From: an uncultured Chloroflexia bacterium
GTDB lineage: Bacteria > Chloroflexota > Limnocylindria > Limnocylindrales > CSP1-4
Direction of reading: 5' to 3'
Assembly: GCA_963829105.1 (NCBI GenBank)
Contig: CAWHHF010000023.1
Location: 12,844 to 76,843 of the forward strand
DNA: 64,000 bases
Part shown: piece after piece, positions 38,935 through 55,054 of the stretch
How positions within the stretch are numbered: the first letter of the stretch is position 1
How the letters are laid out: the number at the start of each line of letters is the position of its first letter
The notes under the pieces: generated by a model
The model's database searches: none
What the model saw: only the letters and a program-made list of their open reading frames with translations
Told to the model about the DNA's origin: nothing
Translations under genes and position numbers: made by a program

Positions 38935-39031
38935 TGGCGGGAGCGCATGGGAGTCGAACCCACCGCGCGACGCCGGGCGCCGCGCCACCGGTTTTGAAGA
39001 CCGGGAGGCCCACCGGGACCCCACCGCTCCC
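38935..39031 (-). tRNA. selC: tRNA-Sec (anticodon UCA)
   Basis: The reverse strand reads GGGAGCGGTGGGGTCCCGGTGGGCCTCCCGGTCTTCAAAACCGGTGGCGCGGCGCCCGGCGTCGCGCGGTGGGTTCGACTCCCATGCGCTCCCGCCA. The anticodon stem CCGGT/ACCGG has loop CTTCAAA. There is a long GC-rich variable arm, a GGTTCGACTCC T-loop and an encoded CCA. The 97 nt length is typical of bacterial tRNA-Sec, and the gene lies between selA/selB and selD. Confidence 0.85.
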
Positions 39032-39160
39032 GCGATGCCGGTCCCCTGGATCGGCAGGCCGCCAGCGTACCGCCCTCGCGAGTCCGGGACGGAGAGCCGC
39101 AAGGGAGGGCCGCCATCGGTCGCACCCGGCGCAGCCCGTCCGGCGGCCTATGATCCCGGG

Positions 39161-40228
39161 ATGAGCGTGCGCCCCGACCCCCCTCGGATCCGCCTGACCG
39201 AGATGACCGACTGCGGCGGGTGCGCCGCGAAGCTGGGGGCGGACTTCCTGGCTCAGGCCCTCTCCGGGCTCGGCGCCGGCAGCATCCCTGACTCGAACCT
39301 GATCGCGGGCCTCGAGCCGCCGGACGACGCCGCCGCCTGGCGCATCTCGGACGACCTCGCGATCCTGGGCACCCTTGACTTCTTCCCGCCCCTGGTCGAC
39401 GACCCCGTCGCCTACGGGGAGATCGCCGCGGCCAACGCGCTCTCGGACGTGTTCGCGATGGGCGGTCGGGTGCTGTTCGCGCTCTCGATCGCGGCCTTCC
39501 CGGAGGACTTCCCGACGGCCGCACTCGCCGCCGTGCTGGAGGCGGCCGCGACGAAGGTCCGCGAGGCGGGGGGCGTGCTCGCCGGCGGCCACACGATCCG
39601 GGACCCCGAGCCGAAGTACGGCCTGGCGGTGATCGGCGCGGCGCACCCGGACCGGCTGCTGCGCAAGGGAGGTGCGCGGCCGGGCGACGTGCTGCTGCTG
39701 ACGAAGCGGCTCGGCACGGGGCTCCTCGTCAACGGCCGCCGGCAGGGCCGCACGTCGGACGCGGACCTTGATGCGGCGATCGACCAGATGCGGACCCTCA
39801 ACCGAGCCGCGTCCGAGGTCCTCGTCCGGCATGGGATCCGCGGCGCCACCGACGTCACGGGCTTCGGGCTGCTGGGCCACGGGCTGGAGATGGCGCGGGC
39901 CTCCGGGACCCGGCTCCTGTTCGAGGCGGCAGCACTCCCGGCGCTGGGCGGTGCGTCGGACCTGGCCCGGGCCGGGGTGGAGACCGGCGGTGCGGGCCAC
40001 AACCGGCGGTACACGACGCCGTCGCTGACGGTCGGACCCGACGTGGCCGCAGCCGGCATCGCGCTCGCGCATGACCCGCAGACCTCCGGTGGCCTGCTCG
40101 CGGCGGTGCCCCGGTCGGACGTCGCAGCGGTCGAGACCGGTTTCCGGGCCGCGGGCGTAGAAAGCTGGCGGGTGGGCGTCGTTGAGGCGATCGGGGACGG
40201 CGACGCGCCCGGCGTGGAGCTCCGCTGA
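39161..40228 (+). CDS. selD: Selenide, water dikinase (selenophosphate synthetase), Cys-type
   Basis: RLTEMTDCGGCAAKLG is the N-terminal active-site loop (Cys, no in-frame TGA). The AIR-synthase-like fold is shown by DDAAAW...LDFFPPLVDDP...AAANALSDVFAMGG...LAGGHT. Confidence 0.92.
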   Translation: MSVRPDPPRIRLTEMTDCGGCAAKLGADFLAQALSGLGAGSIPDSNLIAGLEPPDDAAAWRISDDLAILGTLDFFPPLVDDPVAYGEIAAANALSDVFAMGGRVLFALSIAAFPEDFPTAALAAVLEAAATKVREAGGVLAGGHTIRDPEPKYGLAVIGAAHPDRLLRKGGARPGDVLLLTKRLGTGLLVNGRRQGRTSDADLDAAIDQMRTLNRAASEVLVRHGIRGATDVTGFGLLGHGLEMARASGTRLLFEAAALPALGGASDLARAGVETGGAGHNRRYTTPSLTVGPDVAAAGIALAHDPQTSGGLLAAVPRSDVAAVETGFRAAGVESWRVGVVEAIGDGDAPGVELR

Positions 40229-40259: not shown

Positions 40260-40850
40260 TCAGCGGAGGCGGGCCCACGCCCCGGCGCACGTGGCGCCCG
40301 CGCCGATGACCGCCCAGAGCGCGGCGTTCGTCAGCGCCTGGCCCAGGCGGCGATCGCTGCCCGCGGACGCCCCGACCAGCGAGAGCAGGGTGGCGTTCGA
40401 GAGGCCGAACGCGACCAGCGCCCCGGCCACGATGCCGGCGAACACGACCACCAGCATCACCCGGCCGTGCTTGAAGCCGGTCACGCGCACGACGCCCTCG
40501 GCGATGAGGCGGCCGGCGAAGTAGCTGACGATGATCGAGAAGAAGCCGATCTGCGCCGCAACGAGGGCGGCCAGCAGCCCGCCGCCGGCCGAGACGGCCA
40601 GGCCGCCGACGGCCTCGACCGGCGTGAACGAGGTCAGGGGATCGAAGGCGGGCTTGCCGCAGTCGCGGCACCGGAAGCCGACCGGGCCCTGCACCGCGCA
40701 CCTCGGGCAGATCGGACGGTCGCATCGGCCGCAGCGGACCCACGTCTCGCGATCCGGGTGCCGGTAGCAGAAGAGGCGCCCGCCGTCGGGCTCGGCGACG
40801 CCGTCCGTGCCGTCATCGGCCGGTCCGGTGAGCGCCTCTTCGCTGGTCAT
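40260..40850 (-). CDS. Membrane protein with an N-terminal B-box-type zinc finger
   Basis: CYRHPDRETWVRCGRCDRPICPRCAVQGPVGFRCRDC is followed by 4 hydrophobic segments. Confidence 0.6.
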   Translation of the reverse strand: MTSEEALTGPADDGTDGVAEPDGGRLFCYRHPDRETWVRCGRCDRPICPRCAVQGPVGFRCRDCGKPAFDPLTSFTPVEAVGGLAVSAGGGLLAALVAAQIGFFSIIVSYFAGRLIAEGVVRVTGFKHGRVMLVVVFAGIVAGALVAFGLSNATLLSLVGASAGSDRRLGQALTNAALWAVIGAGATCAGAWARLR

Positions 40851-40920
40851 CGCTCGAGAGCGTGCCGGGGCGGCGAGCGGCCGTCAAATCGACCTGCCCC
40901 GGCGCACCGGCCGGGAGCCG

Positions 40921-41214
40921 TCAGGCGCCGTCGAACGTCCCGTCCATCCAGTCCGGGTCGTCCTCCAGCAGCGCGCGCAGCTCGAGGTACCGGTCGTTCT
41001 GCTCCGGGCTGTCGGCGTTGGCCTTGTAGGTGGCCTCGTCGTCGAACAGGGCGACCAGGAACACGGTCGGCCGCTCGTAGGGGTTCTTGTCGGGGCGGAA
41101 GAAGTAGCTGGAGCGGAAGCCCCGGACGCTGACGCGCTCCATCCGCCTGCCGTAGGCGAGGAGATCGTCGAGCCGGCCCGGCTTGGGGTGAAGTCGCGCG
41201 ATCGTGCCGTACAT
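40921..41214 (-). CDS. Small ABM-like (antibiotic biosynthesis monooxygenase fold) protein, putative
   Basis: MYGTIARLHPKPGRLDDLLAYGRRMERV...TVFLVALFDDEATYKANADSPEQNDRYLELRALL. It is taken as separate from the upstream in-frame MttB relic. Confidence 0.5.
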   Translation of the reverse strand: MYGTIARLHPKPGRLDDLLAYGRRMERVSVRGFRSSYFFRPDKNPYERPTVFLVALFDDEATYKANADSPEQNDRYLELRALLEDDPDWMDGTFDGA

Positions 41215-41366
41215 GGTGGGGACGCACCTCCTGGCGGGAACTGGGATCCGGTCCGGGCCGGATCGGAGGTGGATTGTCCGCCAATCGGGCGATCGTCGCC
41301 GGATCGTCGCCGGGCTGCCGTCATGCCGCACCCGGGCCGACGCAGGCGGGACGTATCGACCCCGAC

Positions 41367-41943
41367 TTATCCGGCCAGCGCCCGGTCCGCCTCCGCCAGG
41401 ATCCGGTTGAGCTCCGCGACCGGGCGCCTGCTGCCGCGTGTGCAGCTCGTGCTGGCCGTGCTTGGAGCAGGACGAGAGCATCGCGCTGAACTCGTGCAGC
41501 GGCCGCGAGGCCACCGGCCGGTCCGACGCCGCGACCGGAGGCCAGGCGAGCACGCCCATGTCGGCGGCCTGGAAGACGCGCATCGCGTGCTCGATGTCGG
41601 CGCGCGTCCCGTATCGCCGCTCGCCCGTCTCGAAGTCACGCATGAACGCCGCCGTGCCGTCCATTGCGTAGCGGGAGACGGGGGACGGCAGCGGGTAGTC
41701 GAAGGCAGGGTTGCGCGCGCCGAGCACGAACGAGCGGGGCGCGCCGGCCACCGCAGCCTCGACGATGGCCCGCGGGATCCTGGCGATCCCGGTGACCTCG
41801 TCAACCTGCGCGCCTGCGTCGCGCAGGAGCGGGAGCGCCCGCTCCCCGTGGAACCGCAGGCCGACCTCGGCCAGGATGCGCAGGCTCCCCTCGTGGACGC
41901 GGGCCTGCTCGTCGGGGGACAGGAACGCCGCCTGGTAGCGCAT
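41367..41943 (-). pseudogene. MttB-family relic A (N-terminal ~165 codons plus an out-of-frame C-terminal ~15 codons)
   Basis: MRYQAAFLSPDEQARVHEGSLRILAEVGLRFHGERALPLLRDAGAQVDEVTGIARIPRAIVEAAVAGAPRSFVLGARNPAFD...SKHGQHE parallels residues ~25-190 of the intact copy at 36026. A different frame ends in VAELNRILAEADRALAG, compared with AELTRILDAARRAIG at the end of the intact copy. The ~300 central codons are missing. Confidence 0.6.
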
Positions 41944-41951
41944 CGCCTACC

Positions 41952-42631
41952 TCATCCCAGCGACGACGGGGCCGCCGCGCGGGCCCGCCGCTCCAGCCGG
42001 TCCAGCTCCTCGGCCACGCCATCGGCGAACGGGAGCGGCGCATGGCCGTCGATCGCCTTCCGGGCCACCTCGTGCGCCTGGTCCAGGACCAGGAGCTCCA
42101 GGAGCCACGCCGCGTCATCGGCCGTCGCGATCTCGTCCTGCACGTGCTTGGAGAACAGCCCGAAGGTCTTCGACCAGTGGGCGACCGCCGGTCCGGGCCC
42201 GCCCGGGCTCTCGATGCCGGAGCTGATCATCCGCCAGTAGGCGCCCACCTCGCCCATGGTGTCGACAAGCCGCGCGCGGCCCAGTCATCCCAGGTGGGGG
42301 CGCGGCGGACACCGGTGGCGGGGTCGTAGACCATCGTGCATTCGCCGTCCGGCATGAGCGTGCACTCGCTCGCGTTCATCGGCAGGGCGAAGCCAGGGCG
42401 GCGGCCGCCGAGCGAGAACCGCCGGGGCGCCGATGCCAGCGATGCCTCCACGAGCGTCCTCGGGAAGCGGACGCGGCGTTCGCCCTCGTCCACCCGGGCG
42501 CCGGCGTCCTCGAGGATCCGGCGGGCCCGCTCGGAGTCGATGCGCATGCCCGTCTTCTCCAGGACGGTCACGGACTGCTCGTGGATCGCGGCGACTTCGG
42601 CGTCGGAGAGGACGCGCAGGAGGGTCGGCAT
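41952..42631 (-). pseudogene. MttB-family relic B (frameshifted, with an internal deletion)
   Basis: MPTLLRVLSDAEVAAIHEQSVTVLEKTGMRIDSERARRILEDAGARVDEGERRVRFPRTLVEASLASAPRRFSLGGRRP... switches frame near 42250 to ...MGEVGAYWRMISSGIES...SKHVQDE. It then jumps to the C-terminal-like AHEVARKAIDGHAPLPFADGVAEELDRLERRAR, compared with IEVAREKAAWVRANHHPEPLGSAEQAELTRILDAARRA in the intact copy. Confidence 0.6.
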
Positions 42632-42690
42632 CGGGCGGCTCCGGTTCGTGGCAGCTGGGTGGGCGCATCCGTCCCGATGCGCCGTCGCCC

Positions 42691-42725
42691 CGTGACGTGA
42701 CCTGACGTGACGTGACCTGACGTGG
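42691..42725. repeat. 2.3 x 15 bp tandem repeat
   Basis: cgtgacgtgacctga occurs twice, followed by cgtgg. Confidence 0.8.
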
Positions 42726-42920
42726 CGCGACGCTACCACCGGGCCCGTGTCCCTGGCCGGCCGGGTCCGCACGGCGCACCGCGTGCCATCCGGGGTCCGT
42801 GGGCGGCGACCGACCGGCGGCCGTTGCGGTGCGCTCGCCCGAGCCGCTCGGCGCCCGGCTCGACGCAGGCTCCGGCTGCACTACACTCTCGCGATCGGAC
42901 CCCACCCTCGAGGTACGCCC

Positions 42921-44831
42921 GTGCCGAAGGAGTACGTCCGCCTGACCACGCCGCTCGTGCGCGACGGCGACCGACGCACCAGCCCCCTCCGCCCGGCCAC
43001 CTGGGACGAGGCGCTGGACCGGACGGTCGCCGCGTTCCGGGCCTCTGGCGAGGCGCACGGCTCCAGGACCTTCGGGATCTTCTCCTGCAGCAAGTCGACC
43101 AACGAGGTCAACTACGCAGCCCAGAAGCTCTCCCGGGTCGTCCTGGGCAGCAACAACGTCGACAGCTGCAACCGCACCTGACACGCCCCCTCTGTCGCCG
43201 GTCTGGCGACCGTGTTCGGCGCCGGTGGCGGTACCAGCTCATATCGAGAGGCCGAGGAGACGGATCTCGTCCTCCTCTGGGGCAGCAACGCCCGGGAGAC
43301 GCACCCGATCTTCTTCCACCACCTCCTGAAGGGGGTGCGGAACGGCGCGCGCCTGATCGCCGTGGATCCGCGCCGGACCTCGTCGGCGGAGTGGGCCGAC
43401 CTGTGGCTGGGCCTGGACGTCGGCACCGACATCCTGATGGCCAACGCCATGGGCCGCGAGATCATCGCCGCCGGCCTCGTCAACGAGGAGTTCGTCCGCC
43501 GGGCGACCTCCGGCTTCGAGGCGTACCGGGCCGGCGTGGAGCCGTACACCCTGGAGCGGGCGGAGCGCGAGACCGGTGTCCCGACGGCCGCCATCCGCGA
43601 GGCGGCGCACGCCTACGCGCTTGCCAACAGGGCGATGATCTGCTGGACGCTGGGGATCACCGAGCACCACAACGGGGTCGACAACGTCCTGGCCCTCATC
43701 AACCTGGCGCTCCTGTGCGGGCATGTCGGGCGCTGGGGCAGTGGCCTCAACCCGCTCCGCGGCCAGAACAACGTCCAGGGGGGCGGCGACATGGGGGCCC
43801 TTCCGGACCGCCTGCCCGGCTTCCAGCACGTGGAGAACGACAGGCTCCGGGTGCCGTTCGAGAAGGCCTGGAACGCCACGATCCCGCCGAAGCGGGGCTG
43901 GAACCTCACGGCGATGTACGACGCCATGGAGCGCGGCGAGCTCACGGCCGTCTACTGCATCGGCGAGAACCCCGTCCGGTCCGAAGCGGACGTCTATCGC
44001 GTCAGGCGGCTCCTCGGCGGCCTGGAGTTCCTGGTCGTCCAGGACATCTCCCTCACGGCCACCGCGGAGATGGCCGACGTGGTCCTGCCTGCCGCCGCGG
44101 CCTGGGCCGAGACCGAGGGCACGGTCACCAACTCCGAGCGCCGCGTCCAGCGGGTGCGCAAGGCGCTGGATCCGCCGGGTGACGCGCGAGATGACCTCTG
44201 GATCATCTTCGAGATTGCGCGGCGGCTCGGTCACGACTGGGGTGAGGCGAGCGCCGAGGCCGTCTGGAACGAGCTCCGGACGCTCTCGCCCGTGCACCAC
44301 GGCATGACCTACGCCCGCCTCGGGGCGGGGGACGGCCTCCAGTGGCCCTGTTACGACGAGACGCACCCGGGCGAGCCGTTCCTCCACTCGCGCCTCTGGG
44401 CGGACCCGGTCCCGGGCAACCGTGCGCCGTTTGTGCCCGTGGAGCACGACCCGCCGGTGGACCCGCTGAGCGATGACTTCCCGGTCCGCCTCACCACGGG
44501 CCGCCACCTGGACGCGTACAACACGGGCGTGCAGTCGGGCGGGTTCCGCTCCCCCAGGCGCCGCACCGAGACGCTCGACCTGTGCCCGGAAGACCTCGAG
44601 CGCTTCGGCCTGGCCGAGGGCGAGCTGGTGCGGGTCATCTCGCGCCGGGGCCAGGTCGAGGCGCCGGTGCGCGCCGATCGGGCCCTGCGCCCGGGCCTCG
44701 CGTTCATGACCTTCCACTACCAGGACGACGTCCAGGTCAACCTGCTCACCATCGACGCCACGGACCCGAAGTCCGGCACGGCCGAGTTCAAGGCGACGGC
44801 GATCCGGATCGAGAAGCTGGGCACCGCGTAG
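42921..44831 (+). CDS. fdhA: Formate dehydrogenase alpha, catalytic Mo/W-bis-MGD portion, selenocysteine-containing (TGA at 43179..43181 read as Sec)
   Basis: Track ORFs 42747..43181 and 43212..44831 are in the same frame and separated only by TGA. Across the junction the protein reads NNVDSCNRT-U-HAPSVAGLATVFG, the conserved Sec/Cys active-site motif of FdhF/FdsA-type formate dehydrogenases. It begins at ...VRLTTPLVRDG...ATWDEALD and lacks the usual N-terminal Fe-S domains. The GTG start at 42921 is tentative. Confidence 0.85.
43182..43214 (+). promoter_or_regulatory. Bacterial SECIS element immediately 3' of the Sec UGA
   Basis: The sequence is cacg-ccccctct-GTCGCC-GGTCT-GGCGAC-cgtg. The apical 6 bp stem (43194..43199 / 43205..43210) carries a GGTCT loop and starts 12 nt after the UGA. 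A lower CACG/CGTG stem has a 5' bulge. As I recall it, the E. coli fdhF SECIS apical loop is similar (GGUC-containing). Confidence 0.7.
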
Positions 44832-45220
44832 CCGGTCGCGCAGTCCGGTCGCGCAGGCATTCGCGTAACCTGCCAGCGTGGCGGGTCGCGCAGCCCGGTT
44901 TGGGTCTCGGGCCCCGGGGCTGGCGGAGCGTGACCACGTCATGGCCTGTCTGTGGTCGTCCGAGGTGCTGGACGCGATCCGTCTCCGGCGAGCCTCCTTC
45001 GCGGGCCTGTGCCCGGACCCGCCCGACGCCCTCAAGGCCTGGCTCCGCGGCGAGCCGCCGGTACCCGGCGTGACGAGCTTTCTGATCGTGCTCGACCCGC
45101 TGGTCCCGTTCGGATCCCGCCGCCGGACGATCGCTGCCGTCGATGAGCCGCCACGCCTCGATCCGCGCCACCGCGATCACGAAGACGCTGCCGAGGCGCT
45201 GCGCCGTGCGGGATGAGCCT

Positions 45221-45613
45221 TCAGGCCGGCCGCACCACCGGCAACCCAATCGCGCGAGCAGCCTCGGCCAGCCGGTCGTCATAGGTGACGAACGCGTCAA
45301 GCTCGGGCATCAGCGTCATCGCCGACGCGAGGTGGATCGCATCGAGCGTGCGAAGCGTGGGCGGCTCCAACGCGGCCGCGACCTTGGTGATGGCCCGGTC
45401 GACCTCGATCACCTCGACGTCACGGACGACGGCATCCCGGTGCTCCGCGTCGTGGTCGCGCCGCGAAGCGGCTCGCAGGGTCTCGATGACCCCGCTCCGG
45501 CTCGTCAGGACGCGCGTCGACTCGACGAACCAGCGGTTCATCGCCCCTGACTCCGGCTCCTCGACCACCAGCTTGACCAGCGCCGAGGCGTCCGCGTACG
45601 TCAGGCCGCTCAT
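45221..45613 (-). CDS. vapC: PIN-domain toxin VapC
   Basis: 130 aa. YADASALVKLVVEEPES...DAIHLASAM...FVTYDDRLAEAA carries the PIN acidic residues. It overlaps the antitoxin stop by 4 nt. Confidence 0.85.
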   Translation of the reverse strand: MSGLTYADASALVKLVVEEPESGAMNRWFVESTRVLTSRSGVIETLRAASRRDHDAEHRDAVVRDVEVIEVDRAITKVAAALEPPTLRTLDAIHLASAMTLMPELDAFVTYDDRLAEAARAIGLPVVRPA

Positions 45614-45909
45614 CGGTCGTCCTCGTCTCGCATCTCCTGCAGGATCGCGCTCAGAGGCCGTCCGGGAATCCTCGGTGGGGGCGGCAGGGTCCGATGGTCG
45701 CCCTCGGCTGGAGTGATCCGTCCCTCGGCGATCATCCGGTCCACGACCGACATCCGGACGGGCGGATTGGGCGTCAGGCGCGCCACCGGTTGCCCGTGCT
45801 CCGTGACCTCGAGCGTCTCGCCGGCCTTCACCCGGTCCAGGTAGACGGACAGGTTCTGCCGCAGCTCGCGCACGCCGACCCGCGCCGGCCGGTCACCAGT
45901 CTCGCTCAT
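45610..45909 (-). CDS. Type II antitoxin (Phd/YefM-like) paired with VapC
   Basis: VGVRELRQNLSVYLDRVKAGETLEVTEHGQPVARLTP is the Phd/YefM N-terminal fold signature. Start at MSETG. Confidence 0.8.
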   Translation of the reverse strand: MSETGDRPARVGVRELRQNLSVYLDRVKAGETLEVTEHGQPVARLTPNPPVRMSVVDRMIAEGRITPAEGDHRTLPPPPRIPGRPLSAILQEMRDEDDR

Positions 45910-45931
45910 GTAGCACATGGTAGCACAATCT

Positions 45932-46056
45932 GCGATCTGTCCCGGCGGGGCCGTCCGGCGTGGTCCGTCCCGGCCGGGCCGACCCGCGGTCGTCTGCCCG
46001 GCGATCTGTCCCGACCGGGCCCGTCCCGGCTGGGCCGACCCACGGTCGTCTGCCCC
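45932..46056. repeat. About 2 x 60 bp imperfect tandem duplication upstream of the vapBC promoter region
   Basis: gcgatctgtcccg..ccgtcccggc(c/t)gggccgaccc(g/a)cggtcgtctgccc occurs twice (units start at 45932 and 46001; the first carries a ~12 bp extra segment). Confidence 0.8.
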
Positions 46057-46064
46057 GACACGCC

Positions 46065-46973
46065 TCAGCCAGGCCCGCCGTCACCGATCTCGATGTTCAG
46101 CACCGCCTCCGCGGCGAGCCGCAGGAGCAGGTCCCGGCCCGTATCGTGGCGCGCCCAGCCGCGCCCGTCCCAGGTCTCGCCGGACAGGTCATCGCCCGCA
46201 TAGAGGATCTGGCCAAACGACACGCGTCGGAACCGCGCGACCGCGAAGAAGGCGGCGGCCTCCATCTCGACGGTGAGGCAACCCTCGGCGACTCGCCGAG
46301 CCACCTTCTCCCTGGTCTCGCGATAGAGCGCGTCCGTCGTCCAGGTCTTGCCCGCGACGTGCGGGATGCCGTGCCGGTCGAGCGTGGCGAGCACGGCGGC
46401 GATCGCGTCGTCCGTCGGGGCGACGTCCCGGGAAGCCGGCAGGTAGTGGTAGCTCGTGCCCTCGTCGCGGATCGCCGCCGTGGGGACGATCACGTGGCCC
46501 ATCGCGAGATCCGGGACCAGCACACCGGCCCCACCGACGGCGACGAATGCCCGGCCGCCAAGCGCGATCAGCTCGTCCAGCCAGCCCGCCGCAAGGGGCG
46601 CGCCGACACCCGCCAGCGCGATCGCCAGCCGCCGGCCGTCGCAATCCACCTCGAACACGGGGTGCGATCCCATCTCCGAGGCGAGTCGTCCGATCTCCCG
46701 GCCACCCTGCTCGCCGACGAACGACGAGATCGCGTCCCGGAAGAAGCACAGCACCACGTGGGGCGGCAGGTCGAACGGCTCGATGGCGAGGGCGGGCTCG
46801 ATCACGGCGTCTCGCGCCGGATCGAAATCGAGGATCGGTGCGTCGGGCGAGATCGCTACGTCCAGCGGATCGGGCAAGAGAGGAGCTCGGTATCGGCGGA
46901 ATGGGCGGCTGTCGCTCTCGATGATGCGCTGCCGGACCGCGCGGCGCGTGGGGGTCGTACACTCGGTCGCCAT
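46065..46973 (-). CDS. Nucleoside phosphorylase-family protein (PNP_UDP_1 fold)
   Basis: AGVGAPLAAGWLDELIALGGRAFVAVGGAG...PTAAIRDEGTSYHY...TTDALYRET...VEMEAAAFFAVA. The only ATG giving a full-length N-terminus is at 46973. Confidence 0.72.
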   Translation of the reverse strand: MATECTTPTRRAVRQRIIESDSRPFRRYRAPLLPDPLDVAISPDAPILDFDPARDAVIEPALAIEPFDLPPHVVLCFFRDAISSFVGEQGGREIGRLASEMGSHPVFEVDCDGRRLAIALAGVGAPLAAGWLDELIALGGRAFVAVGGAGVLVPDLAMGHVIVPTAAIRDEGTSYHYLPASRDVAPTDDAIAAVLATLDRHGIPHVAGKTWTTDALYRETREKVARRVAEGCLTVEMEAAAFFAVARFRRVSFGQILYAGDDLSGETWDGRGWARHDTGRDLLLRLAAEAVLNIEIGDGGPG

Positions 46974-48984
46974 GGATCTCCACGTCGTCGACATCGCTCC
47001 GACGTCCTCGGAGCGGGCCGCGATCGATGCGGTCCTCGACCCGGTCATCGGTCCCGCCAAGGGTGGATGGGATGGCGGCGAGCGGGACATCGAGCGGGAC
47101 GGGCACGTCGCCCGCGGCGGTCACGAGGCACGCTCCCACCGGCATCTGCTGCTACCCGCGTTCCACGCGGCGCAGGACCGCGCGGGCTGGATCAGCCCCG
47201 GCGTCCTCGCCTACATCTGCCGCCGCCTGACGGTCCCACCCGCGGAAGCCTATGGCGTCGCATCCTTCTACGCGCTGCTGTCAACCTCCCCGAAGCCGCC
47301 CGCGGTCGCGCATGTCTGCGATGCCATGGCCTGCCGCCTGGCCGGTGCGGAGTCGGTGTGCGCGGACCTGGTGCGAGAGCTGGGGCCCGCCGGCCGACCC
47401 GCCCCGGGAGCGAACATGACCTGGATGCGGAGCCCGTGCCTGGGCCTCTGCGAGCAGGCGCCGGCCGCGCTGTTCACCGTCGCCGGCGACCCTCCCCTGC
47501 GGCGCGCCCTCGGCCCGGTTGATGCGCCGAGCGTCATCGCCCACCTGGATGCCGGCCTACGCGGCCGCGACAAGGTGGACGCCGGCCTCCGCGGCCGCGA
47601 GGATCCGGACGCCGGCCTCCGCGGCCGCGAACAGATGGATGCCGGCCTCCGCGGCCGCGAACACCCGGACACGCCCGCCGGGACCCCTGGCACCGTCCCC
47701 TCCTCCGAACGCATCGCAAGCCTTCGACGGTTCGTCCCCCAGGCCGGTGATCGCGGGCTCCGTCTTCTCGCGCGCGTCGGTCGCATCGACCCCACCAGCC
47801 TCACGGACTTCCTGGCCACCGGCGGCTACCGCGCCCTCCGGGCCGCCATCGACCACGGCCCGAGGCGGGTCATCGAGGAGGTCATCACCGCCGAGGTCCT
47901 GGGGCGCGGCGGCGCGGCGTTCCCCGCGGGCAGGAAGTGGGCGGCGGCGGCAGCGTCCCCCGGGGGCGGCAGGATCGTCGTCTGCAACGCGGACGAGGCA
48001 GAGCCCGGGACCTTCAAGGATCGCGCGATCCTCGAGGAGGACCCGTTCTCGCTGGTCGAGGCGATGACCATCGCCGGCTTCGCCACCGGAGCCGAGCGGG
48101 GGTTCCTGTACATCCGCGGCGAGTACCCGCTCGGCGAGGCACGCATGGCCAACGCGATTGCCCGGGCGCGGGAGCGTGGCCGGCTGGGCCCGGACGTGAT
48201 GGACGCCGGCTTCGCGTTCGACATCGAGATCCGCCGCGGCGGTGGTGCCTACATCTGCGGCGAGGAGACGGCGCTGTTCGAGAGCATCGAGGGCAAGCGC
48301 GGCGAGCCCCGCAACAAGGGAGGCGACCGCCCGACGAGCGTCGGCCTGTTCGGGAGGCCCACGGTGGTCAACAACGTGGAGACCCTCGTCAACATCCCGG
48401 GGATCATCCTGGACGGCGTGGCCGAGTACGCGTCGCTGGGCACTGCCATGTCCCCCGGGCCGAAGCTGTTCAGCGTCTCCGGCCACATCGTCCGGCCCGG
48501 CGTCTACGAGACCGGGTTCGGGATCACGCTGCGAGACCTGATCGAGCTGGCGGGCGGCGTCCCGGGCGGGCGCGCGGTCAGGGCCGTCAACCTGGGCGGG
48601 GCGGCAGGCGCCTTCGTTGGACCGGACGCGATGCACATGCCGCTCACCTACGAGAACGCGAAGAAGCTGGGTGTCACGCTTGGCGCGGGCGCCGTGGTCG
48701 TGTTCGACGAGACCACCGACCTGCTGGACATCCTTCGGCGCATCGCCCAGTTCTTCCGCGACGAGTCGTGCGGGCAGTGTGTCCCGTGCCGCATCGGAAC
48801 GGTCCGCCAGGAGGAGCTGCTGGCGCGCCTGATGGCCGGCGCGCCCCGCGGGTCCACGTCGGATGAGCTCGCGCTGCTCGATGATCTTGGGCGGGTCATG
48901 CGGGACGCGTCGATCTGCGGCCTGGGCCAGACCGCGAACGATGCGCTGGCCAGCGGCCTGCGACTCCCCGGGGTGCTCGCATGA
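46972..48984 (+). CDS. NuoE-like (2Fe-2S) / NuoF-like (FMN, NAD, 4Fe-4S) fusion protein; probable diaphorase module of the formate dehydrogenase (FdsG-FdsB-like)
   Basis: The N-terminal part has HLLLPAFHAAQDRAGWISPGVLAYICRRLTVPPAEAYGVASFYALL...VCDAMAC. The C-terminal part has GRGGAAFPAGRKW, CNADEAEPGTFKDR, GGGAYICGEETAL and ESCGQCVPCRIG. A 4 x 10 aa repeat linker separates them. An alternative GTG start exists at 46948. Confidence 0.88.
   Translation: MDLHVVDIAPTSSERAAIDAVLDPVIGPAKGGWDGGERDIERDGHVARGGHEARSHRHLLLPAFHAAQDRAGWISPGVLAYICRRLTVPPAEAYGVASFYALLSTSPKPPAVAHVCDAMACRLAGAESVCADLVRELGPAGRPAPGANMTWMRSPCLGLCEQAPAALFTVAGDPPLRRALGPVDAPSVIAHLDAGLRGRDKVDAGLRGREDPDAGLRGREQMDAGLRGREHPDTPAGTPGTVPSSERIASLRRFVPQAGDRGLRLLARVGRIDPTSLTDFLATGGYRALRAAIDHGPRRVIEEVITAEVLGRGGAAFPAGRKWAAAAASPGGGRIVVCNADEAEPGTFKDRAILEEDPFSLVEAMTIAGFATGAERGFLYIRGEYPLGEARMANAIARARERGRLGPDVMDAGFAFDIEIRRGGGAYICGEETALFESIEGKRGEPRNKGGDRPTSVGLFGRPTVVNNVETLVNIPGIILDGVAEYASLGTAMSPGPKLFSVSGHIVRPGVYETGFGITLRDLIELAGGVPGGRAVRAVNLGGAAGAFVGPDAMHMPLTYENAKKLGVTLGAGAVVVFDETTDLLDILRRIAQFFRDESCGQCVPCRIGTVRQEELLARLMAGAPRGSTSDELALLDDLGRVMRDASICGLGQTANDALASGLRLPGVLA
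47548..47667 (+). repeat. 4 x 30 bp in-frame tandem repeat (decapeptide DAGLRGR-xxx) in the NuoE/NuoF linker
   Basis: ga(t/c)gccggcct(a/c)cgcggccgcga + 7 variable nt, four times. It encodes DAGLRGRDKV DAGLRGREDP DAGLRGREQM DAGLRGREHP. Confidence 0.9.
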
Positions 48985-49003
48985 ACCCGGCGGGAGTCCC
49001 TGC

Positions 49004-50056
49004 ATGACGGCGCCGAAGACCCCGTACACCGGTTCCGACCCCGTCATCTTCCTTGGCCAGCCGGCGCGCTCCCCCGTGCTCCCCGGCCCGCCGCCACGGC
49101 CCGAGCCGGAGCGGGTGAGGCTGACGATCGACGGCCGGCCGGTCACGGCCGGCGCCGGCACCACGATCCTGCAGGCCTGCCGCGCGCAGGGCATCGACAT
49201 CCCCACGCTGTGTCACGGCGAGACCGTGGAGCCCGAGGGCGTCTGCCGGCTGTGCGTGGTGGACACCGGCGGCCGGGCGCTGACCCCGGCCTGCTCGGTG
49301 AGGGTCTCGCAGGGCCTGGACGTGCGGACCGACAACGAGCGCGTCCGCCACTCGCGGAAGCTCGTCCTGGAGCTGCTCGGCTCGTCGGTGAACGTGGACC
49401 TGGCGGGTCCCGCGCTGCCGGACGGGACCATCGACGGGTACATGGCCAGGTATGGGGCGGACCCGGCACGGTTCGGGCCGCCGGCACCGCCGGCCGCGGC
49501 GGGTGAGCGCGATGGTCGCGACGCCGGGCACCACCACGCCCCGGACGGGTCCTCGGCCGAGACCGTCGCCCAGCCCGTGAAGGTGGACAACAGCCTGTTC
49601 GTGCGCGACTACGCTCGCTGCATCCTCTGCTACAAGTGCGTCGAGGCCTGCGGCGTGGACGCCCAGAACTCGTTCGCGATCTCCGTCGCCGGGCGCGGGT
49701 TCGACGCCCGGATCTCCACCGAGTACGACATCCCGCTGGCCGAGGGCGCCTGTGTCTTCTGCGGCAACTGCATCAACGTCTGCCCTACCGGCGCGCTGAT
49801 GTTCCGCTCCGAGTACGAGCTGCGCCTGGCGGGCACCTGGGACGAGGCCTCCCAGACCGTCACGCACACGATCTGCCCGTACTGCGGCGTGGGCTGCACG
49901 CTCCAGCTGCACGTCCAGGACAACCGCATCGTGAAGGTGCTCTCGCCGGCCGATTCCGAGCTGACCAGGGGCAACCTGTGCGTGAAGGGCCGCTTCGGGT
50001 TCGACTTCGTCCAGGATCGCCCGACGGGCGGGCGCGAGGAAGGGCCGCAGCCCTGA
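49004..50056 (+). CDS. NuoG-like Fe-S protein corresponding to the N-terminal Fe-S domains of a formate dehydrogenase alpha subunit (truncated after the MopB 4Fe-4S motif)
   Basis: The 2Fe-2S site is LCHGETVEPEGVCRLCVVD...PAC. The ferredoxin-type clusters are CILCYKCVEAC and CVFCGNCINVCP. The molybdopterin-oxidoreductase 4Fe-4S domain is CPYCGVGCTL...GNLCVKGRFGFDFV. The stop comes 12 codons later. Confidence 0.85.
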   Translation: MTAPKTPYTGSDPVIFLGQPARSPVLPGPPPRPEPERVRLTIDGRPVTAGAGTTILQACRAQGIDIPTLCHGETVEPEGVCRLCVVDTGGRALTPACSVRVSQGLDVRTDNERVRHSRKLVLELLGSSVNVDLAGPALPDGTIDGYMARYGADPARFGPPAPPAAAGERDGRDAGHHHAPDGSSAETVAQPVKVDNSLFVRDYARCILCYKCVEACGVDAQNSFAISVAGRGFDARISTEYDIPLAEGACVFCGNCINVCPTGALMFRSEYELRLAGTWDEASQTVTHTICPYCGVGCTLQLHVQDNRIVKVLSPADSELTRGNLCVKGRFGFDFVQDRPTGGREEGPQP

Positions 50057-50097
50057 AGCGTCGCCGGATCCTGCCCACCTTCCTTGCCGCGATCACG

Positions 50098-51093
50098 GTG
50101 ATCGTCCTGCTCGAGGTTGCCGTCAACGTCGTGCTGCGGCCGCAGGAGGGTCCGCCGGCGCTGGCGGCCGTGTTCGAGGGCTACCTGCTGGCGCTGGGCG
50201 CCGTGGCGGGGCTGCTGGCCATCCTGGCCTCGCTGGGATCCGGGACCGGGGGGGCCTGGATCCGCCTGGTCGGGGCGGTCATGATCGTGGTCGCGATCGT
50301 GCGCCTGGGGGGCGAATGGTGGTCTCCCAGCCCGACCGTGGCGACCGGCGCGAACCCGGCCCCGATCGAGCTCCAGGTCATGACCTGGAACCTGGCGATC
50401 GGGTCCCGGTCGACAGCCGAAACCGTGACCGGGATCATCGGGTCCGGGGCGGACCTCGTAGCGGTCCAGGAACTGGCGCCCGACGTGGCAGCGGCCATCG
50501 AGGCCGACCCAGCGCTGCGGGCGCGGTACCCGTACCGGATCCTCGAGCCATCGGAAGGGACGGCCGGGCTGGGGCTGCTGAGCCGGCTGCCGCTGGTGGT
50601 GGGCAGCTACGCGGCGGAGCCCCCCGTCCTGCAGGCCGGCCTGCTGCTCCCCGACGGCCGGACCGTCCAGGTGCTCGACGCGCACCCGATCGCCCCGGAG
50701 ATCACCCACCTCGGTGGGGTGCCGTTCGGGCTGGACACGCGGCAGCGTGACGCCGAGCTCCAGGCGATCCGGGACACCGTCGCGGCGTTGCCCGATCCGG
50801 GCGCCGCCCTGGTCCTGGGGGACCTCAACCTCACGCCGTTCGAGCCCGGCTACGGCCTGCTGACCGGCGGGTCGCCCGGGCCCCCGCTCACCGACGCCCA
50901 CGAGGCGGCCGGCACCGGCACGGGCTTCACCTGGCGGCCGACCGCGCTCGATCGCCTCCAGATCGGGCTGCTGCGCATCGATCACGTGCTGTCCGGCGCC
51001 TGGCTGAAACCGATCGCGGTGCGCGAGGACTGTGCCCTGCCCGGCGACCACTGCCGGCTGCTGGCCACGCTGGAGGCGGCCGGCGGCGGCTGA
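50098..51093 (+). CDS. Membrane-anchored endonuclease/exonuclease/phosphatase (EEP) family protein
   Basis: N-terminal hydrophobic segments are followed by LQVMTWNLA...DLVAVQEL...LGDLNLTPF...RIDHVL, the EEP motifs. The start is uncertain: GTG at 50098, or CTG at 50053 overlapping the preceding stop. Confidence 0.7.
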   Translation: MIVLLEVAVNVVLRPQEGPPALAAVFEGYLLALGAVAGLLAILASLGSGTGGAWIRLVGAVMIVVAIVRLGGEWWSPSPTVATGANPAPIELQVMTWNLAIGSRSTAETVTGIIGSGADLVAVQELAPDVAAAIEADPALRARYPYRILEPSEGTAGLGLLSRLPLVVGSYAAEPPVLQAGLLLPDGRTVQVLDAHPIAPEITHLGGVPFGLDTRQRDAELQAIRDTVAALPDPGAALVLGDLNLTPFEPGYGLLTGGSPGPPLTDAHEAAGTGTGFTWRPTALDRLQIGLLRIDHVLSGAWLKPIAVREDCALPGDHCRLLATLEAAGGG

Positions 51094-51178
51094 GCGGGGG
51101 CGGTCCCGCCCGGTACCCGGTACCCTTGGGGTCCACACGACCCAGGCGAGCAGGGGCCACCCGGCCCTGTCCCGGCCG

Positions 51179-51196
51179 ATGTATCGAACGACACAG
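51179..51196. promoter_or_regulatory. Imperfect palindrome ATGTATCGAACGACACAG 43 nt upstream of the histidine kinase start; related to the palindrome at 61234
   Basis: It matches CTGTATCGAGCGATACAG (61234..61251) at 15 of 18 positions. It is relatively AT-rich in a GC-rich spacer. Confidence 0.4.
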
Positions 51197-51238
51197 TCGG
51201 ACGCACGAGCCATCCCGACGCATGAGCGCACTGGACGC

Positions 51239-53050
51239 ATGAGCGAACCCCGCGGCAGCCGCGACCTCAACCGCCTCAAGTGGGCGACGATGGTGCTCCC
51301 CATCGTCTTTGTCTGGCTGTTCGAGCTGGGCCGGTTCCTCGTCCTCGACCCGAGGGTCACGGGTGACAACGGCCACGTCGCGTCCGCGATGATCATGGGC
51401 GGGGCGATCGTGGTCTTCGCCACCATCGTCTCCCTGTACCTGGACCGCGCCCAGAAACAGCTGGTCGCCCAGAACAAGGACCTCACCGTCACCCATGCCG
51501 TCAGCTCTGCCGTGCGCGGCGGCCTCTCGCTGCCGGACCTCCTGGAGCAGTCGCTGGACCGGCTGATGACCCAGACCGGCGCCCTGACCGGCATCGTCAG
51601 CGTCAGGGGCGCCGACGGCCAGGCCCTGGTCATCCGGCGCCCGGTCACCCTCCCGGCCGGCCTCACCTGGCTGACGCCCATCCTCAACGCCCAGCCGGAC
51701 CCGGCCGTGGATGGCCCGCGGTACCTCGTCCAGTCCGGCGTGGACACCGGCGTCCTCGACCTGCCGCTGGTCCACGGCTCGGAGCGCATCGGCTACCTCC
51801 GCCTGGCGTTCCGCCCGCCCGTCCAGCCCGACATCTCGGACGCGGCCCTCGCGGACATCGCGGGCGAGATCGCCGGCGCCGTCCAGCTGGGGATCACGGT
51901 CTCCGACCTCCACCGGCGCGAGCTGGAGCGCGAGGCCCTGTACGCGGTCGCCCTCCAGCTCACGGGCCGCAACGACCTGCGCGACGTCCTCGACACCATC
52001 ACCGCGCACGCCCGCGAGCTGCTGGGTGCCGAGCGGGCGGTGGTCTGCCTGAGCGACGCCCGCGACATGACCTCGCGCACCGCGATCAGCCGCGAGCGCC
52101 TGGCGATGGCCGACGACGGCGGGGTGTGCCTCGTCGCCCACGAGCAGAGCTCGGCCCAGCATGCGCGCAACCCTCTCTGCCCGCTCCTTGTCAGGGACGG
52201 CACGGACGCCTGGGCCGCCCGCCCGCTCCGCGGCCCCGACGGGATCCTCGGCGAGCTCTGCGTCGTCCGCTCGGGCGCCCCGTTCACCGCCCAGGAGCGG
52301 AACCTCCTCGGCGCCCTCGCGGACATGGCGTCGATCGCGGTGCGCACGGCCCGCCTCCACGAGGCCGAGGAGCAGTGGACCATCCACGCGGAGCGCGACC
52401 GGATCGCCCGCGAGCTCCACGACAGCCTCGCCCAGGTCCTGGGCGTCATCCACCTGCAGCTCCGGTCGCTCGAGGCCCGCGCCAAGGACGAGGCGAGCCT
52501 GGGCATCGCCGACGAGCTCTCGGCCCTCGCGGAGACGGCCGACGAGGCGTACAGCGACGTCCGGGAGGCGATCCTCGGGCTGCGCGAGACGGTCCGCGAG
52601 GACGACGGCCTCGAGGGCTCGCTGCGCGAGTACCTGCGCAAGTACAGCCGCCAGACCGGGATCGTGGCCACGCTCTCGTGCGAGGGCGACACCCGCCGGG
52701 CGCTCAGCCCGAGGTCGGAGGTCCAGCTCCTGCGGGTCGTCCAGGAGGCGCTCACCAATGCCCGCAAGCACTCGCAGGCGCACCGGGTGGCGGTGCGCAT
52801 CGACTGCCTCGGGCAGGGGACGACGCTCACGGTCGAGGACGATGGCGTCGGCTTCGACCCGTCCTCGGTCGCGAGCTCCATGGAGGGCGGCTTCGGGCTG
52901 AAGTCCATGCGCGAGCGGGTCGAGCAGATCGGTGGCAGTATCGATGTGCATACCGCCCCGAACGAGGGGACGACGATCGTCGTCCGGCTCGACGCTGAGG
53001 ACACGCGTGGGACACCTTCCCCCCAGACTCCGGGTGCTGCTCGTCGATGA
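51239..53050 (+). CDS. Sensor histidine kinase (2 TM + GAF + HisKA_3 + HATPase_c; NarX/LiaS class)
   Basis: Two N-terminal hydrophobic helices and GAF-like regions (DLRDVLDTITAHARELLGAERAVVCL). The phospho-His box is ERDRIARELHDSLAQ, and the C-terminal ATPase has VEDDGVGFD...GFGLKSMRERV. Confidence 0.85.
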   Translation: MSEPRGSRDLNRLKWATMVLPIVFVWLFELGRFLVLDPRVTGDNGHVASAMIMGGAIVVFATIVSLYLDRAQKQLVAQNKDLTVTHAVSSAVRGGLSLPDLLEQSLDRLMTQTGALTGIVSVRGADGQALVIRRPVTLPAGLTWLTPILNAQPDPAVDGPRYLVQSGVDTGVLDLPLVHGSERIGYLRLAFRPPVQPDISDAALADIAGEIAGAVQLGITVSDLHRRELEREALYAVALQLTGRNDLRDVLDTITAHARELLGAERAVVCLSDARDMTSRTAISRERLAMADDGGVCLVAHEQSSAQHARNPLCPLLVRDGTDAWAARPLRGPDGILGELCVVRSGAPFTAQERNLLGALADMASIAVRTARLHEAEEQWTIHAERDRIARELHDSLAQVLGVIHLQLRSLEARAKDEASLGIADELSALAETADEAYSDVREAILGLRETVREDDGLEGSLREYLRKYSRQTGIVATLSCEGDTRRALSPRSEVQLLRVVQEALTNARKHSQAHRVAVRIDCLGQGTTLTVEDDGVGFDPSSVASSMEGGFGLKSMRERVEQIGGSIDVHTAPNEGTTIVVRLDAEDTRGTPSPQTPGAARR

Positions 53051-53699
53051 CCAGCCCCTGTTCCGCAGGGCGCTCGCGACGCTGATCAGCGCCCAGTTCG
53101 ACATGACGGTCGTGGGCGAGGGCGAGAACGGCCGTGACGCCCTGGAGAAGGTCCGGGCGCTGCGTCCCGATCTCGTCGTCATGGACGTGAACATGCCCGT
53201 CGCCTCGGGCGTGGACGGCGTGATCGCGATCCGCGCGGCGGGCATCACGACCCCGATCGTCATGCTGACCGTGTCCGAGGACGACGACGACCTGTTCGAG
53301 TCGATCAAGGCGGGCGCCAACGGCTACCTGCTCAAGAACGTGCGCCCGGAGCAGCTGTTCGAGGACCTGCGCGGCATGATGCGCGGCGAGGCGCCGATCG
53401 CCCCGGCCGTCGCCGGCAGGCTCCTCGAGGCGCTGCGCACCGGCGGGATCCCCACCCGCGGACAGCCCGCCGCCTCTCCCCCGGACGCCGTCCTGACCCG
53501 TCGCGAGTCGGAGATCCTCCAGCTGGTCGCCGCCGGCATGTCCAACAAGGAGATCGCCAACGAGCTGACGATCACCGAGGGGACCGTCAAGAACCACGTC
53601 CACAACGCGCTGGAGAAGCTGCACCTCACGAACCGGGTGCAGGCCGCCGCGTACGCCGTCCGCCAGGGCTACGCGAACCAGGAGCCGAACCGGGACTGA
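53007..53699 (+). CDS. NarL/LuxR-family response regulator
   Basis: RVLLVDDQPLFR...PDLVVMDVNMP...MLTVSEDD forms the receiver domain. LTRRESEILQLVAAGMSNKEIANELTITEGTVKNHVHNALEKL forms the LuxR helix-turn-helix. The GTG start overlaps the kinase 3' end. Confidence 0.9.
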   Translation: MGHLPPRLRVLLVDDQPLFRRALATLISAQFDMTVVGEGENGRDALEKVRALRPDLVVMDVNMPVASGVDGVIAIRAAGITTPIVMLTVSEDDDDLFESIKAGANGYLLKNVRPEQLFEDLRGMMRGEAPIAPAVAGRLLEALRTGGIPTRGQPAASPPDAVLTRRESEILQLVAAGMSNKEIANELTITEGTVKNHVHNALEKLHLTNRVQAAAYAVRQGYANQEPNRD

Positions 53700-54347: not shown

Positions 54348-54358
54348 GCTGATCGCCC

Positions 54359-54877
54359 ATGGGTGACGACATCCGCCGTGCTGCCACCGCCCCGGCGTTC
54401 GATCCGCGAGCGACCCCCGTTCACCGCCGCCGCGTCCTGCTGTTGATCGGGGTGACCGCGCTCGCCGGCGGCAGCCTCGCCGCCCTGCTGGAGGGATGCG
54501 CCGGACCGCCTGTCCCGGTGGAGCTCGACGTCGACCCGGACACCCTGGTGCCGGGTACGCCTGTCGAGGTGCCGTTCACGGTCCAGCTCGGCGGCAACGC
54601 GGTCGCCGGGTCGGCCTGGCTGGTGAAGCAGGCGTCGGGGGAGATCATCGCGTTCGACCCGCGCTGCACCCACGCCCTGTGCTCCTACCGCTGGGAACCG
54701 GGTCCGGCAGACTTCTCGTGCAACTGCCACGACGGCAAGTTCAGGCTGGACGGGACCGTCATCTCGGGCAAGCCGCCCAAGCCGCTGAACCGCTTCCCGG
54801 TGCACGTGACGGGCACCGTGGTGGAGGTCGACGTGCCGGGGGACTTCGCCACCCCGAAGGCGTCCCTGCCGGCGTAG
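54359..54877 (+). CDS. Exported Rieske [2Fe-2S] protein (twin-arginine signal, possible lipobox)
   Basis: HRRRVLLLIGVTALAGGSLAALLEGC is the Tat motif plus an L-x-G-C lipobox-like site. The Rieske ligands are CTHALC...CNCHDGKF. Confidence 0.85.
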   Translation: MGDDIRRAATAPAFDPRATPVHRRRVLLLIGVTALAGGSLAALLEGCAGPPVPVELDVDPDTLVPGTPVEVPFTVQLGGNAVAGSAWLVKQASGEIIAFDPRCTHALCSYRWEPGPADFSCNCHDGKFRLDGTVISGKPPKPLNRFPVHVTGTVVEVDVPGDFATPKASLPA

Positions 54878-55014
54878 GAGGCGCTCCTGCCGCCGCTCCT
54901 GCCGCCGCTCCTACCGGCGCCCTGCCGCGGCCCCTGGCGGCGCGGTTGCGGGCTCCTTGGCACCCCCTTGCCGGGCCCTTCCGCACCCACCCGTGGGACC
55001 CACAGGGCCGGACG

Positions 55015-55054
55015 GTACAGGCGGCGTGGTGCGTCCTGGCGCCGCCCTGTACCG
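55015..55054 (+). terminator. Strong GC hairpin after the Rieske gene (candidate terminator/attenuator; no clear U-tract)
   Basis: GGTACAGGCGGCG - 13 nt loop - CGCCGCCCTGTACC, a 13 bp stem with one bulged C. Confidence 0.35.

Follow-up and report, generated by a model that had tools for sequence, protein, structure and literature searches.

A predicted selenocysteine-dependent formate dehydrogenase from Chloroflexota and other phyla with its FS0 domain and catalytic domain encoded on separate subunits

Genes of the locus and their cofactor sites

A 64,000-nt stretch of contig CAWHHF010000023.1, from an uncultured Chloroflexia bacterium (CSP1-4, Limnocylindrales), carries three genes on one strand whose products match the parts of a formate dehydrogenase (FDH) linked to nicotinamide adenine dinucleotide (NAD), and in which the counterpart of the usual single-chain alpha subunit is encoded in two pieces. 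The whole stretch is hereafter called the window, and all coordinates are positions within it. Because G+C content in this region is ~72%, real genes were sorted from spurious open reading frames (ORFs) by third-position GC and domain matches. The three genes, with the associated features for decoding selenocysteine (Sec), are as follows.

42921 (GTG) to stop 44829-44831, + strand: catalytic subunit of formate dehydrogenase, 636 codons, of the molybdenum- or tungsten-bis-pyranopterin guanine dinucleotide (Mo/W-bisPGD) type; Pfam, NCBIfam and structure matches
43194..43210, + strand: mini-hairpin GUCGCC-GGUCU-GGCGAC resembling a Sec insertion sequence (SECIS), 12 nt 3' of the UGA; from folding
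46972..48984, + strand: NuoE-NuoF fusion (NuoEF), the diaphorase subunit; Pfam, NCBIfam and structure matches
47546-47663, + strand: 30-nt tandem repeat, 3.9 copies, 85% matches, in the NuoE-NuoF linker, encoding DAGLRGRExx decapeptides
49004 (ATG) to stop 50054-50056, + strand: Fe-S subunit, 350 aa; Pfam, structure matches and homologue alignment
~31884-32500, - strand: MobA-like guanylyltransferase
32516-34486, - strand: selB
34532 to ~35950, - strand: selA
38935-39031, - strand: tRNA-Sec (Rfam)
~39160-40228, + strand: selD

Relatives were sought by a protein search with the Fe-S subunit, which returned >120 clusters at 68-86% identity, and by a second protein search seeded with a Nitriliruptoraceae member of the same family. 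Gene order was studied in 82 loci, consisting of two close relatives (L001 and L002) and 80 from a scan of species-representative genomes, all re-analysed with tblastn; starts of catalytic genes were counted only in the 56 loci with a readable start region.

The catalytic ORF had been described in the initial annotation as containing Sec and lacking any Fe-S domain, and Pfam bears this out: PF00384 (1.3e-67, profile positions 1-352 of 353) and PF01568 (2.9e-25) were matched, and no Fe-S domain, FS0 included, was found on this half by the same search. Its single in-frame TGA (43179-43181) corresponds to Sec87 in a CNRT-U-HAPS context, and the active-site residues Sec87, His88 and Arg280 are all present, the last within LRGQNNVQG. 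The best solved match is T. kivui FdhF (7QV7), and the alignment begins only at FdhF residue 63. All 56 readable related catalytic genes have a UGA at the active site, and of 62 related genes 61 keep the SECIS-like hairpin; in a GUGGUC/GGCCAC variant, present in five Actinomycetota loci, both sides are altered and pairing is retained, which is supportive of a structured element rather than proof of one, since the same stretch is protein-coding. The hairpin loop resembles that of the E. coli fdhF SECIS. The Sec machinery is indeed close by, as first read from the DNA, with selB, selA, tRNA-Sec and selD at 32.5-40.2 kb; tRNA-Sec was the sole Rfam match in the window at the gathering threshold, and neither a riboswitch nor any other known RNA was found ahead of the catalytic gene.

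Pfam and cysteine mapping likewise confirm the initial reading of the ORF at 49004-50056 as carrying a 2Fe-2S site, two 4Fe-4S sites and FS0 (the molybdoenzyme [4Fe-4S] domain, PF04879) ahead of its stop codon. The matches are PF13510 (2Fe-2S), a 4Fe-4S dicluster and PF04879 (profile positions 2-54 of 55), and the ligands are cysteines 70/81/84/97 for the 2Fe-2S cluster, 206/209/212/216 and 250/253/256/260 for the two 4Fe-4S clusters, and 291/294/298/326 for FS0, next to Lys328. All 16 (four for the 2Fe-2S cluster, eight ferredoxin-type and four for FS0) are invariant across the 82 homologues, and the ORF terminates 24 residues past the last FS0 cysteine. The protein scores 130 bits against the HoxU model. 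No conserved cysteine was found in the 82 homologues between the 2Fe-2S and ferredoxin motifs, where a His/Cys3 [4Fe-4S] cluster (A4 of the Rhodobacter capsulatus enzyme, RcFDH; N5-like) would be expected, and alignment with FdsA, the RcFDH alpha subunit, showed the His/Cys3 motif to be replaced. The segment substituting for it contains a His-His-His triad (residues 176-178; 49529-49537, + strand) kept in 66-81 of the 82 homologues. Five database homologues (P0132, P0163, P0179, P0188 and P0244) have 200-345 extra N-terminal residues, and may be NuoF/Fe-S fusions or read-through calls over a 4-nt gene overlap.

The start of nuoEF was set at the ATG at 46972 because relatives align from that Met. 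Its product combines, in one ORF, a NuoE-type 2Fe-2S domain (PF01257), the flavin mononucleotide (FMN)/NADH site (PF01512), an SLBB domain and an N3-type 4Fe-4S domain (PF10589), and matches the FDH beta subunits 6VW7_B, 6TG9_B and 7E5Z_B. It ends six residues past the NuoF core (residues 265-664 of 670), and Pfam found no C-terminal ferredoxin domain and no Fer4 match; without such extra domains NuoEF resembles non-bifurcating diaphorases, e.g. the fused beta subunit of MeFDH1. The linker repeat looks like a lineage-specific expansion, since relatives align poorly over the linker.

Position of the break and its recurrence in relatives

The two pieces of the alpha subunit lie 4.2 kb apart in permuted order, and they complement each other. 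Positions 1-51 of TIGR01591 (Fdh-alpha) fall on residues 289-339 of the Fe-S half (53.1 bits) and positions 53-672 on residues 7-630 of the catalytic half (630.7 bits, which leaves that half alone just under the model's cut-off of 666.25), a partition in agreement with the suggestion in the initial annotation that the RLTxPL sequence opening the catalytic ORF continues the truncated Fe-S ORF. The Fe-S half covers FdsA residues 22-306 (9WXB_B) or 18-303 (6TG9_A) and the catalytic half residues 308-931 of both, and therefore nothing has been lost and nothing duplicated. In fused Sec-FdhA relatives, which served as a control and included a second copy in locus L045 and several UGA-truncated database proteins, the motif CxKGRFxxDFxxxP(D/E)RLxxPL is uninterrupted, whereas in the split form the Fe-S protein ends with CVKGRFGFDFVQDR and a short tail, and the catalytic protein begins M/V-PKEYV-RLTTPL. 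Comparison of these junctions places the cut within a linker of 4-6 residues, and leaves on the FS0 side the Lys that follows the last FS0 Cys by two residues.

The break had initially been placed at the boundary between the Fe-S and catalytic domains. It does follow the FS0 domain, but the FS0/catalytic cut (FdsA 306/308) falls within the FdhF-like module, ~55 residues in, rather than at the border between the HoxU-like and FdhF-like modules: in FdsA of RcFDH, the HoxU-like module comprises the first 250 residues, and the remaining 700, including FS0 (A1), are FdhF-like (PMC7171172). Because the cut falls inside this module, the split appears better explained by secondary fission of an already fused FdsA-like gene than by an ancestral unfused state. 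The order catalytic gene, nuoEF, Fe-S gene may stem from translocation or from duplication and loss.

Nearly all of the >120 clusters from the first protein search are 330-370 aa long and all have a domain string ending in PF04879, and the second search returned forms of ~314-349 aa with one exception of 392 aa. A stand-alone Fe-S gene, encoding ~300-360 aa, is present in all 82 loci, whose phyla include Chloroflexota, Acidobacteriota, Actinomycetota and Planctomycetota. In 81 of them its stop codon comes 12-44 residues past the last FS0 Cys, with variable tails, and all 56 readable catalytic genes have a start codon 5-6 codons before RLTxP(L/M)VR, in many cases preceded at 7-30 codons by an in-frame stop. 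The Fe-S ORF of L038 (10940 onward) stays open for 831 codons with no stop, which could be an assembly frameshift or a real extension. No fused member was found within the split clade among the 82 loci; in a representative search with the Fe-S half, which returned mostly metagenome fragments, fused forms of 900-1100 aa appeared only at <=46% identity.

The initial annotation had proposed synteny in relatives as a check, and they proved to be split likewise, with the catalytic gene, nuoEF and the Fe-S gene in the same order on one strand in 63 of the 82 loci; 14 contigs were too short upstream for the order to be judged. Tight three-gene operons account for 32 of the 63, with alignment gaps of 7-230 nt and some 4-nt start/stop overlaps, and were found in Acidobacteriota, Actinomycetota, Planctomycetota, Rokubacteria, Binatia, Thermomicrobiaceae and some Limnocylindrales. 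The other 31, nearly all labelled Chloroflexota, have 0.6-4.9 kb of DNA inserted behind the catalytic gene. L001 and L002 (contigs of 1.3 and 3.6 Mb) share the series selD, two mttB genes, catalytic gene, PIN/PhdYeFM, nuoEF, Fe-S gene, and GAF kinase with regulator, their catalytic genes having been called in pieces because of the UGA. In Actinomycetota loci, fdhD and a formate-tetrahydrofolate ligase gene adjoin the operon. The Limnocylindrales contig L045 contains the three genes of the split form and also, at a distance of 3 kb and on the opposite strand, a conventional fused Sec-FdhA (11778-14498, - strand) with a His/Cys3 cluster and a NuoF-like gene; split and fused architectures therefore coexist in one genome. 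A search of a plasmid collection gave no match.

Pairwise ratios of nonsynonymous to synonymous substitutions (dN/dS) between the window and four relatives fell in the ranges 0.15-0.20 (catalytic gene), 0.19-0.31 (nuoEF) and 0.21-0.29 (Fe-S gene), indicating that all three are under purifying selection. As judged from these comparisons, the split belongs to a large family and not to the window genome alone, the three genes form a tight operon in most phyla, and the 2.1-kb insert between the catalytic gene and nuoEF in the window appears as a lineage-specific addition.

Inserted genes, promoter-like boxes and neighbours

The features between and around the three genes are listed here.

41425-41943, - strand: mttB-family remnant, residues 1-173 kept
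42087-42631, - strand: mttB-family remnant, residues 1-183 kept, frameshift near 42275
42881-42900, + strand: promoter-like box CTACACTC...TCGGAC, ahead of the catalytic gene
42910-42913, + strand: Shine-Dalgarno-like GAGG, between the promoter-like box and the catalytic GTG
45221-45613, - strand: PIN toxin (cargo)
45610-45918, - strand: Phd/YefM antitoxin (cargo)
46065..47090, - strand: phosphorylase-family gene (PNP_UDP_1, Pfam; cargo)
46958..46963, + strand: TACACT, -10-like box, 8 nt 5' of the nuoEF ATG
50053-51093, + strand: EEP-family gene, overlapping the TGA of the Fe-S gene
51032-53699, + strand: GAF-HisKA_3 kinase and LuxR-type response regulator
54353-61143, + strand: Rieske protein, NHL-repeat protein and two multihaem cytochromes (Paired_CXXCH, MtrC-like)

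The toxin-antitoxin pair, phosphorylase and nuoE-nuoF fusion reported between the halves in the initial annotation are all there, with the correction that the toxin-antitoxin pair lies on the opposite strand. This pair is no part of the enzyme, and the same PIN-Phd/YefM pair is found at the same place in L001 and L002. The cargo is variable, since L002 has a methyltransferase gene at the position of the phosphorylase, whose own true start is probably internal because its ORF overlaps the start of nuoEF. The gap between antitoxin and phosphorylase contains a degenerate 28-nt tandem repeat (45936-46055, + strand; 4.2 copies, 64% matches).

The CTACACTC element at 42881 lies ~35 nt 5' of the catalytic GTG, and in an alignment of 12 close relatives its TA-ACT and TCGGA columns are invariant, while sequence farther upstream is unconserved. 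Ahead of nuoEF, TACACT occurs 6-9 nt before the start in 40 Chloroflexota-type loci, a spacing typical of leaderless mRNAs, and is absent in 27 others, mostly from other phyla. TACACT occurs only three times in the window (4850-4855, - strand; 42882-42887, + strand; 46958-46963, + strand), each time 8-35 nt before a start codon, and the boxes would act as promoters of both units. TACACT may mark a specific regulon, or may be no more than the strongest -10 form in the organism. The copy at 4850-4855 is again CTACACTC, 8 nt before the GTG of an unannotated ORF (~4202-4839, - strand) with no Pfam match. A scan of 42250-50300 for sigma-70 promoters and intrinsic terminators found none, and is uninformative at 72% GC.

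In L002 the genes corresponding to the two mttB-family remnants encode 479 and 485 aa and stand between selD and the catalytic gene; neither of the ORFs next to the remnants (40260-40883 and the remainder of 40921-41943) gave a Pfam match. In the divergent intergenic region between remnant and catalytic gene, a perfect 15-nt repeat, CGTGACGTGACCTGA, is present in 2.3 copies (pentamer CGTGA x 8.4; 42691-42732, + strand), perhaps as an operator-like site. In the window and in close relatives the neighbouring genes encode MttB-family methyltransferases and a DAO-type oxidase, a setting that would fit oxidation of C1-derived formate.

The stop codon of the Fe-S half is also where the EEP-family gene begins, as originally noted. 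The apparent N-terminus of the EEP-family protein, LKRRRILPTFLAAITVIVLL, is membrane-anchor-like and starts with CTG, there being no canonical start codon close to it; L002 has the gene and L001 does not. The kinase, regulator, Rieske, NHL and cytochrome genes are syntenic in L001 and L002, directly 3' of the Fe-S gene.

The proposed enzyme, its alternatives and known systems

The three genes very probably encode a cytoplasmic, NAD-linked, Sec-dependent Mo- or W-formate dehydrogenase, a heterotrimer in which FS0 is supplied in trans. The 636-aa catalytic subunit would start right where the FS0 domain ends in single-chain enzymes, bind the bis-pyranopterin cofactor and oxidise formate at Sec87/His88/Arg280; the 350-aa HoxU-like subunit would contribute the FS0 [4Fe-4S] cluster as its last 55-residue domain, together with Lys328; and the NuoE-NuoF fusion would hold FMN and the NAD(H) site. 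The FS0 domain is predicted to dock non-covalently on the catalytic subunit, at the position that it has in single chains, so that electrons would pass from Mo/W-bisPGD over the subunit interface to FS0, and on through the two ferredoxin-type [4Fe-4S] clusters, the NuoF cluster and FMN to NAD+. The architecture may have originated by fission of an FdsA-like gene and then spread in soil and freshwater phyla as a catalytic gene-nuoEF-Fe-S gene operon; in the Limnocylindria-type lineage, insertion of the toxin-antitoxin pair and other cargo after the catalytic gene would have produced two transcription units with a common TACACT box. From sequence we infer the physical complex, its formate:NAD+ activity, its metal and the promoter function of the boxes.

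Several observations weigh against this reading. In the window, opposite-strand genes part the catalytic gene from the nuoEF/Fe-S pair, and because they intervene, co-expression of the two units is suggested solely by the shared -10-like box. The truncated mttB genes beside the catalytic gene show local decay in this genome. Five of the 82 loci (L005, L038, L039, L062 and L069) have no catalytic gene in at least 8 kb upstream, so that linkage of the three genes is not absolute, and one of them, L069 (Chthonomonadaceae), also has no nuoEF. Docking of FS0 in trans is proposed by homology with single-chain enzymes, and the relatives found are all metagenome-assembled genomes or metagenome contigs, the family being known from sequence alone.

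The separate transcription units and the five loci without a nearby catalytic gene could instead mean that the halves work apart, with NuoEF and the Fe-S subunit as a diaphorase for another partner and the catalytic protein as a molybdoenzyme without FS0, of a kind that does exist (PMC10100899, PMC5123574), serving another acceptor. We consider this improbable: the PF04879 domain has no known role apart from the MopB domain, enzymes of the FdhF/FdsA type, to which the catalytic half belongs, always use FS0, the match between the halves is exact to the residue, and in 32 loci the three genes form a tight operon, in some cases with 4-nt overlaps.

The initial annotation had left the choice between a natural two-piece alpha subunit and a gene broken by rearrangement. 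Permuted order, mobile-type toxin-antitoxin cargo between the halves and the truncated mttB genes would be expected of remnants of a recent break or a mis-assembly. The same break point and order, however, recur in 63 independently assembled loci from several phyla, megabase contigs included, with conserved stop and start positions of both halves; the frames are intact except for the Sec UGA, dN/dS is 0.15-0.31, and the Sec machinery and SECIS element are intact. Recurrence across phyla, conserved gene ends and selection refute the broken gene as a general explanation and exclude, with scarcely any doubt, both an assembly artefact and a recent break, and the same split, gene ends and order in dozens of independently assembled genomes speak strongly for the two-piece subunit.

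Rejoining of the halves by an excision circle, RNA trans-splicing or a split intein is just as hard to credit, even though circularising 42.8-50.05 kb would put the Fe-S half in frame ahead of the catalytic half and a peptide RPTGGR occurs both in the Fe-S half tail and upstream of the catalytic gene, given that the tails are short, variable and without intein motifs, tight operons have nuoEF between the halves, 13 relatives share no conserved repeat, and in-frame stops upstream of the catalytic start in many relatives exclude a fused reading. The RPTGGR direct repeat was also considered as an att site and rejected, its DNA match of 14/18 nt being at the level of shuffled controls and absent from relatives; an RPxGxRE tail is semi-conserved in close relatives.

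The heterotrimer with FS0 in trans would represent a widespread and uncharacterised enzyme family. More tentatively, it may stand for a large undescribed class of Mo/W-bisPGD enzymes in which a HoxU-like partner delivers FS0 in trans and the first electron step from the pterin crosses a subunit interface, with Sec-dependent NAD-linked FDHs being common in aerobic soil and freshwater phyla. If so, FS0 docking could be an assembly or regulatory checkpoint, and the catalytic subunit could mature, or swap partners, independently of the diaphorase, which the two-promoter operon split in Limnocylindria would fit. In nitrate reductase, FS0 insertion is reported as a prerequisite for cofactor insertion (PMC5123574), and the split family offers a ready-made system for studying the order of FS0 and molybdenum cofactor insertion and the tolerance of pterin-to-FS0 transfer for a subunit interface. 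It would also add a Sec member to the NAD-linked FDHs, which are of interest for CO2 reduction. Source names of the Fe-S subunit are generic or wrong (2Fe-2S cluster-binding protein, YjgC, HndD), and NCBIfam has no dedicated model for the split architecture; with the Fe-S subunit misnamed and the catalytic gene cut at the UGA, formate oxidation is probably under-called in Limnocylindria, Acidobacteriota, Acidimicrobiia and Planctomycetota.

In archetypal Mo/W-bisPGD enzymes FS0 is in the same chain as the pterin site, and it is from this that the split family departs. The deviations listed in a family review are FS0 loss and added Fe-S extensions (PMC5123574), and the NAD-dependent FDHs of a 2026 review all have a single-chain, Cys-ligated alpha subunit (PMC13397495). 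Genome papers have recorded a Sec fdhA beside nuoEF or NuoEFG-like genes with the split unremarked (PMC4807772, PMC4378227); these operons may belong to the present family, which would make Plesiocystis pacifica SIR-1 (PMC4807772) and Sulfobacillus species (PMC4378227) candidate cultured hosts. A full-text literature search, which covered few subscription journals, turned up no account of an FS0 domain carried by a separate subunit.

FdsABG(D) of R. capsulatus and C. necator (6TGA/6TG9, 9WXB) shares with the proposed enzyme the NuoE-like 2Fe-2S domain, the NuoF-like FMN/4Fe-4S domain, the HoxU-like module, FS0 and the bis-pterin. FdsA is a single chain of 958 aa, whereas the present halves are two chains cut at ~306/308 and encoded in the order C-part, nuoEF, N-part; here NuoE and NuoF are fused, the ligand is Sec and not Cys, no FdsD was found, and cluster A4 is missing, which in R. 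capsulatus FdsA is a His/Cys3 cluster located at the dimer interface, outside the main electron route (PMC7171172). MeFDH1 of Methylorubrum extorquens (7E5Z/7VW6) is likewise a soluble NAD-linked enzyme with a NuoE-NuoF fusion as its beta subunit, but differs in having a single-chain alpha subunit, of ~990 aa, and a Cys-W site. In the NAD+-reducing [NiFe] hydrogenase, HoxFU (5XF9) provides a parallel for a stand-alone HoxU-type Fe-S subunit bridging a NuoF-like flavoprotein and a separate catalytic subunit; HoxU is without PF04879, whereas here a molybdoenzyme FS0 domain sits on the HoxU-like protein.

Unlike bifurcating HydB/HylB-type subunits, the NuoF-like subunit has no extra C-terminal 2x[4Fe-4S] ferredoxin domains. 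FDHs of the FdhF2-HylABC and hydrogen-dependent CO2 reductase (HDCR) types combine FdhF, the catalytic subunit, with Fe-S and flavin subunits of their own, and thus also place catalytic and electron-transfer modules on different polypeptides; their FdhF, however, keeps its own FS0, which here is on the other subunit. A precedent for a MopB-fold catalytic unit on two polypeptides is FwdB/FwdD of formylmethanofuran dehydrogenase, in which the separate piece is the C-terminal cap (domain IV) and not, as here, the N-terminal FS0 domain. The predicted enzyme would work like FdsABG and MeFDH1, while failing to share the single-chain alpha architecture that defines them.

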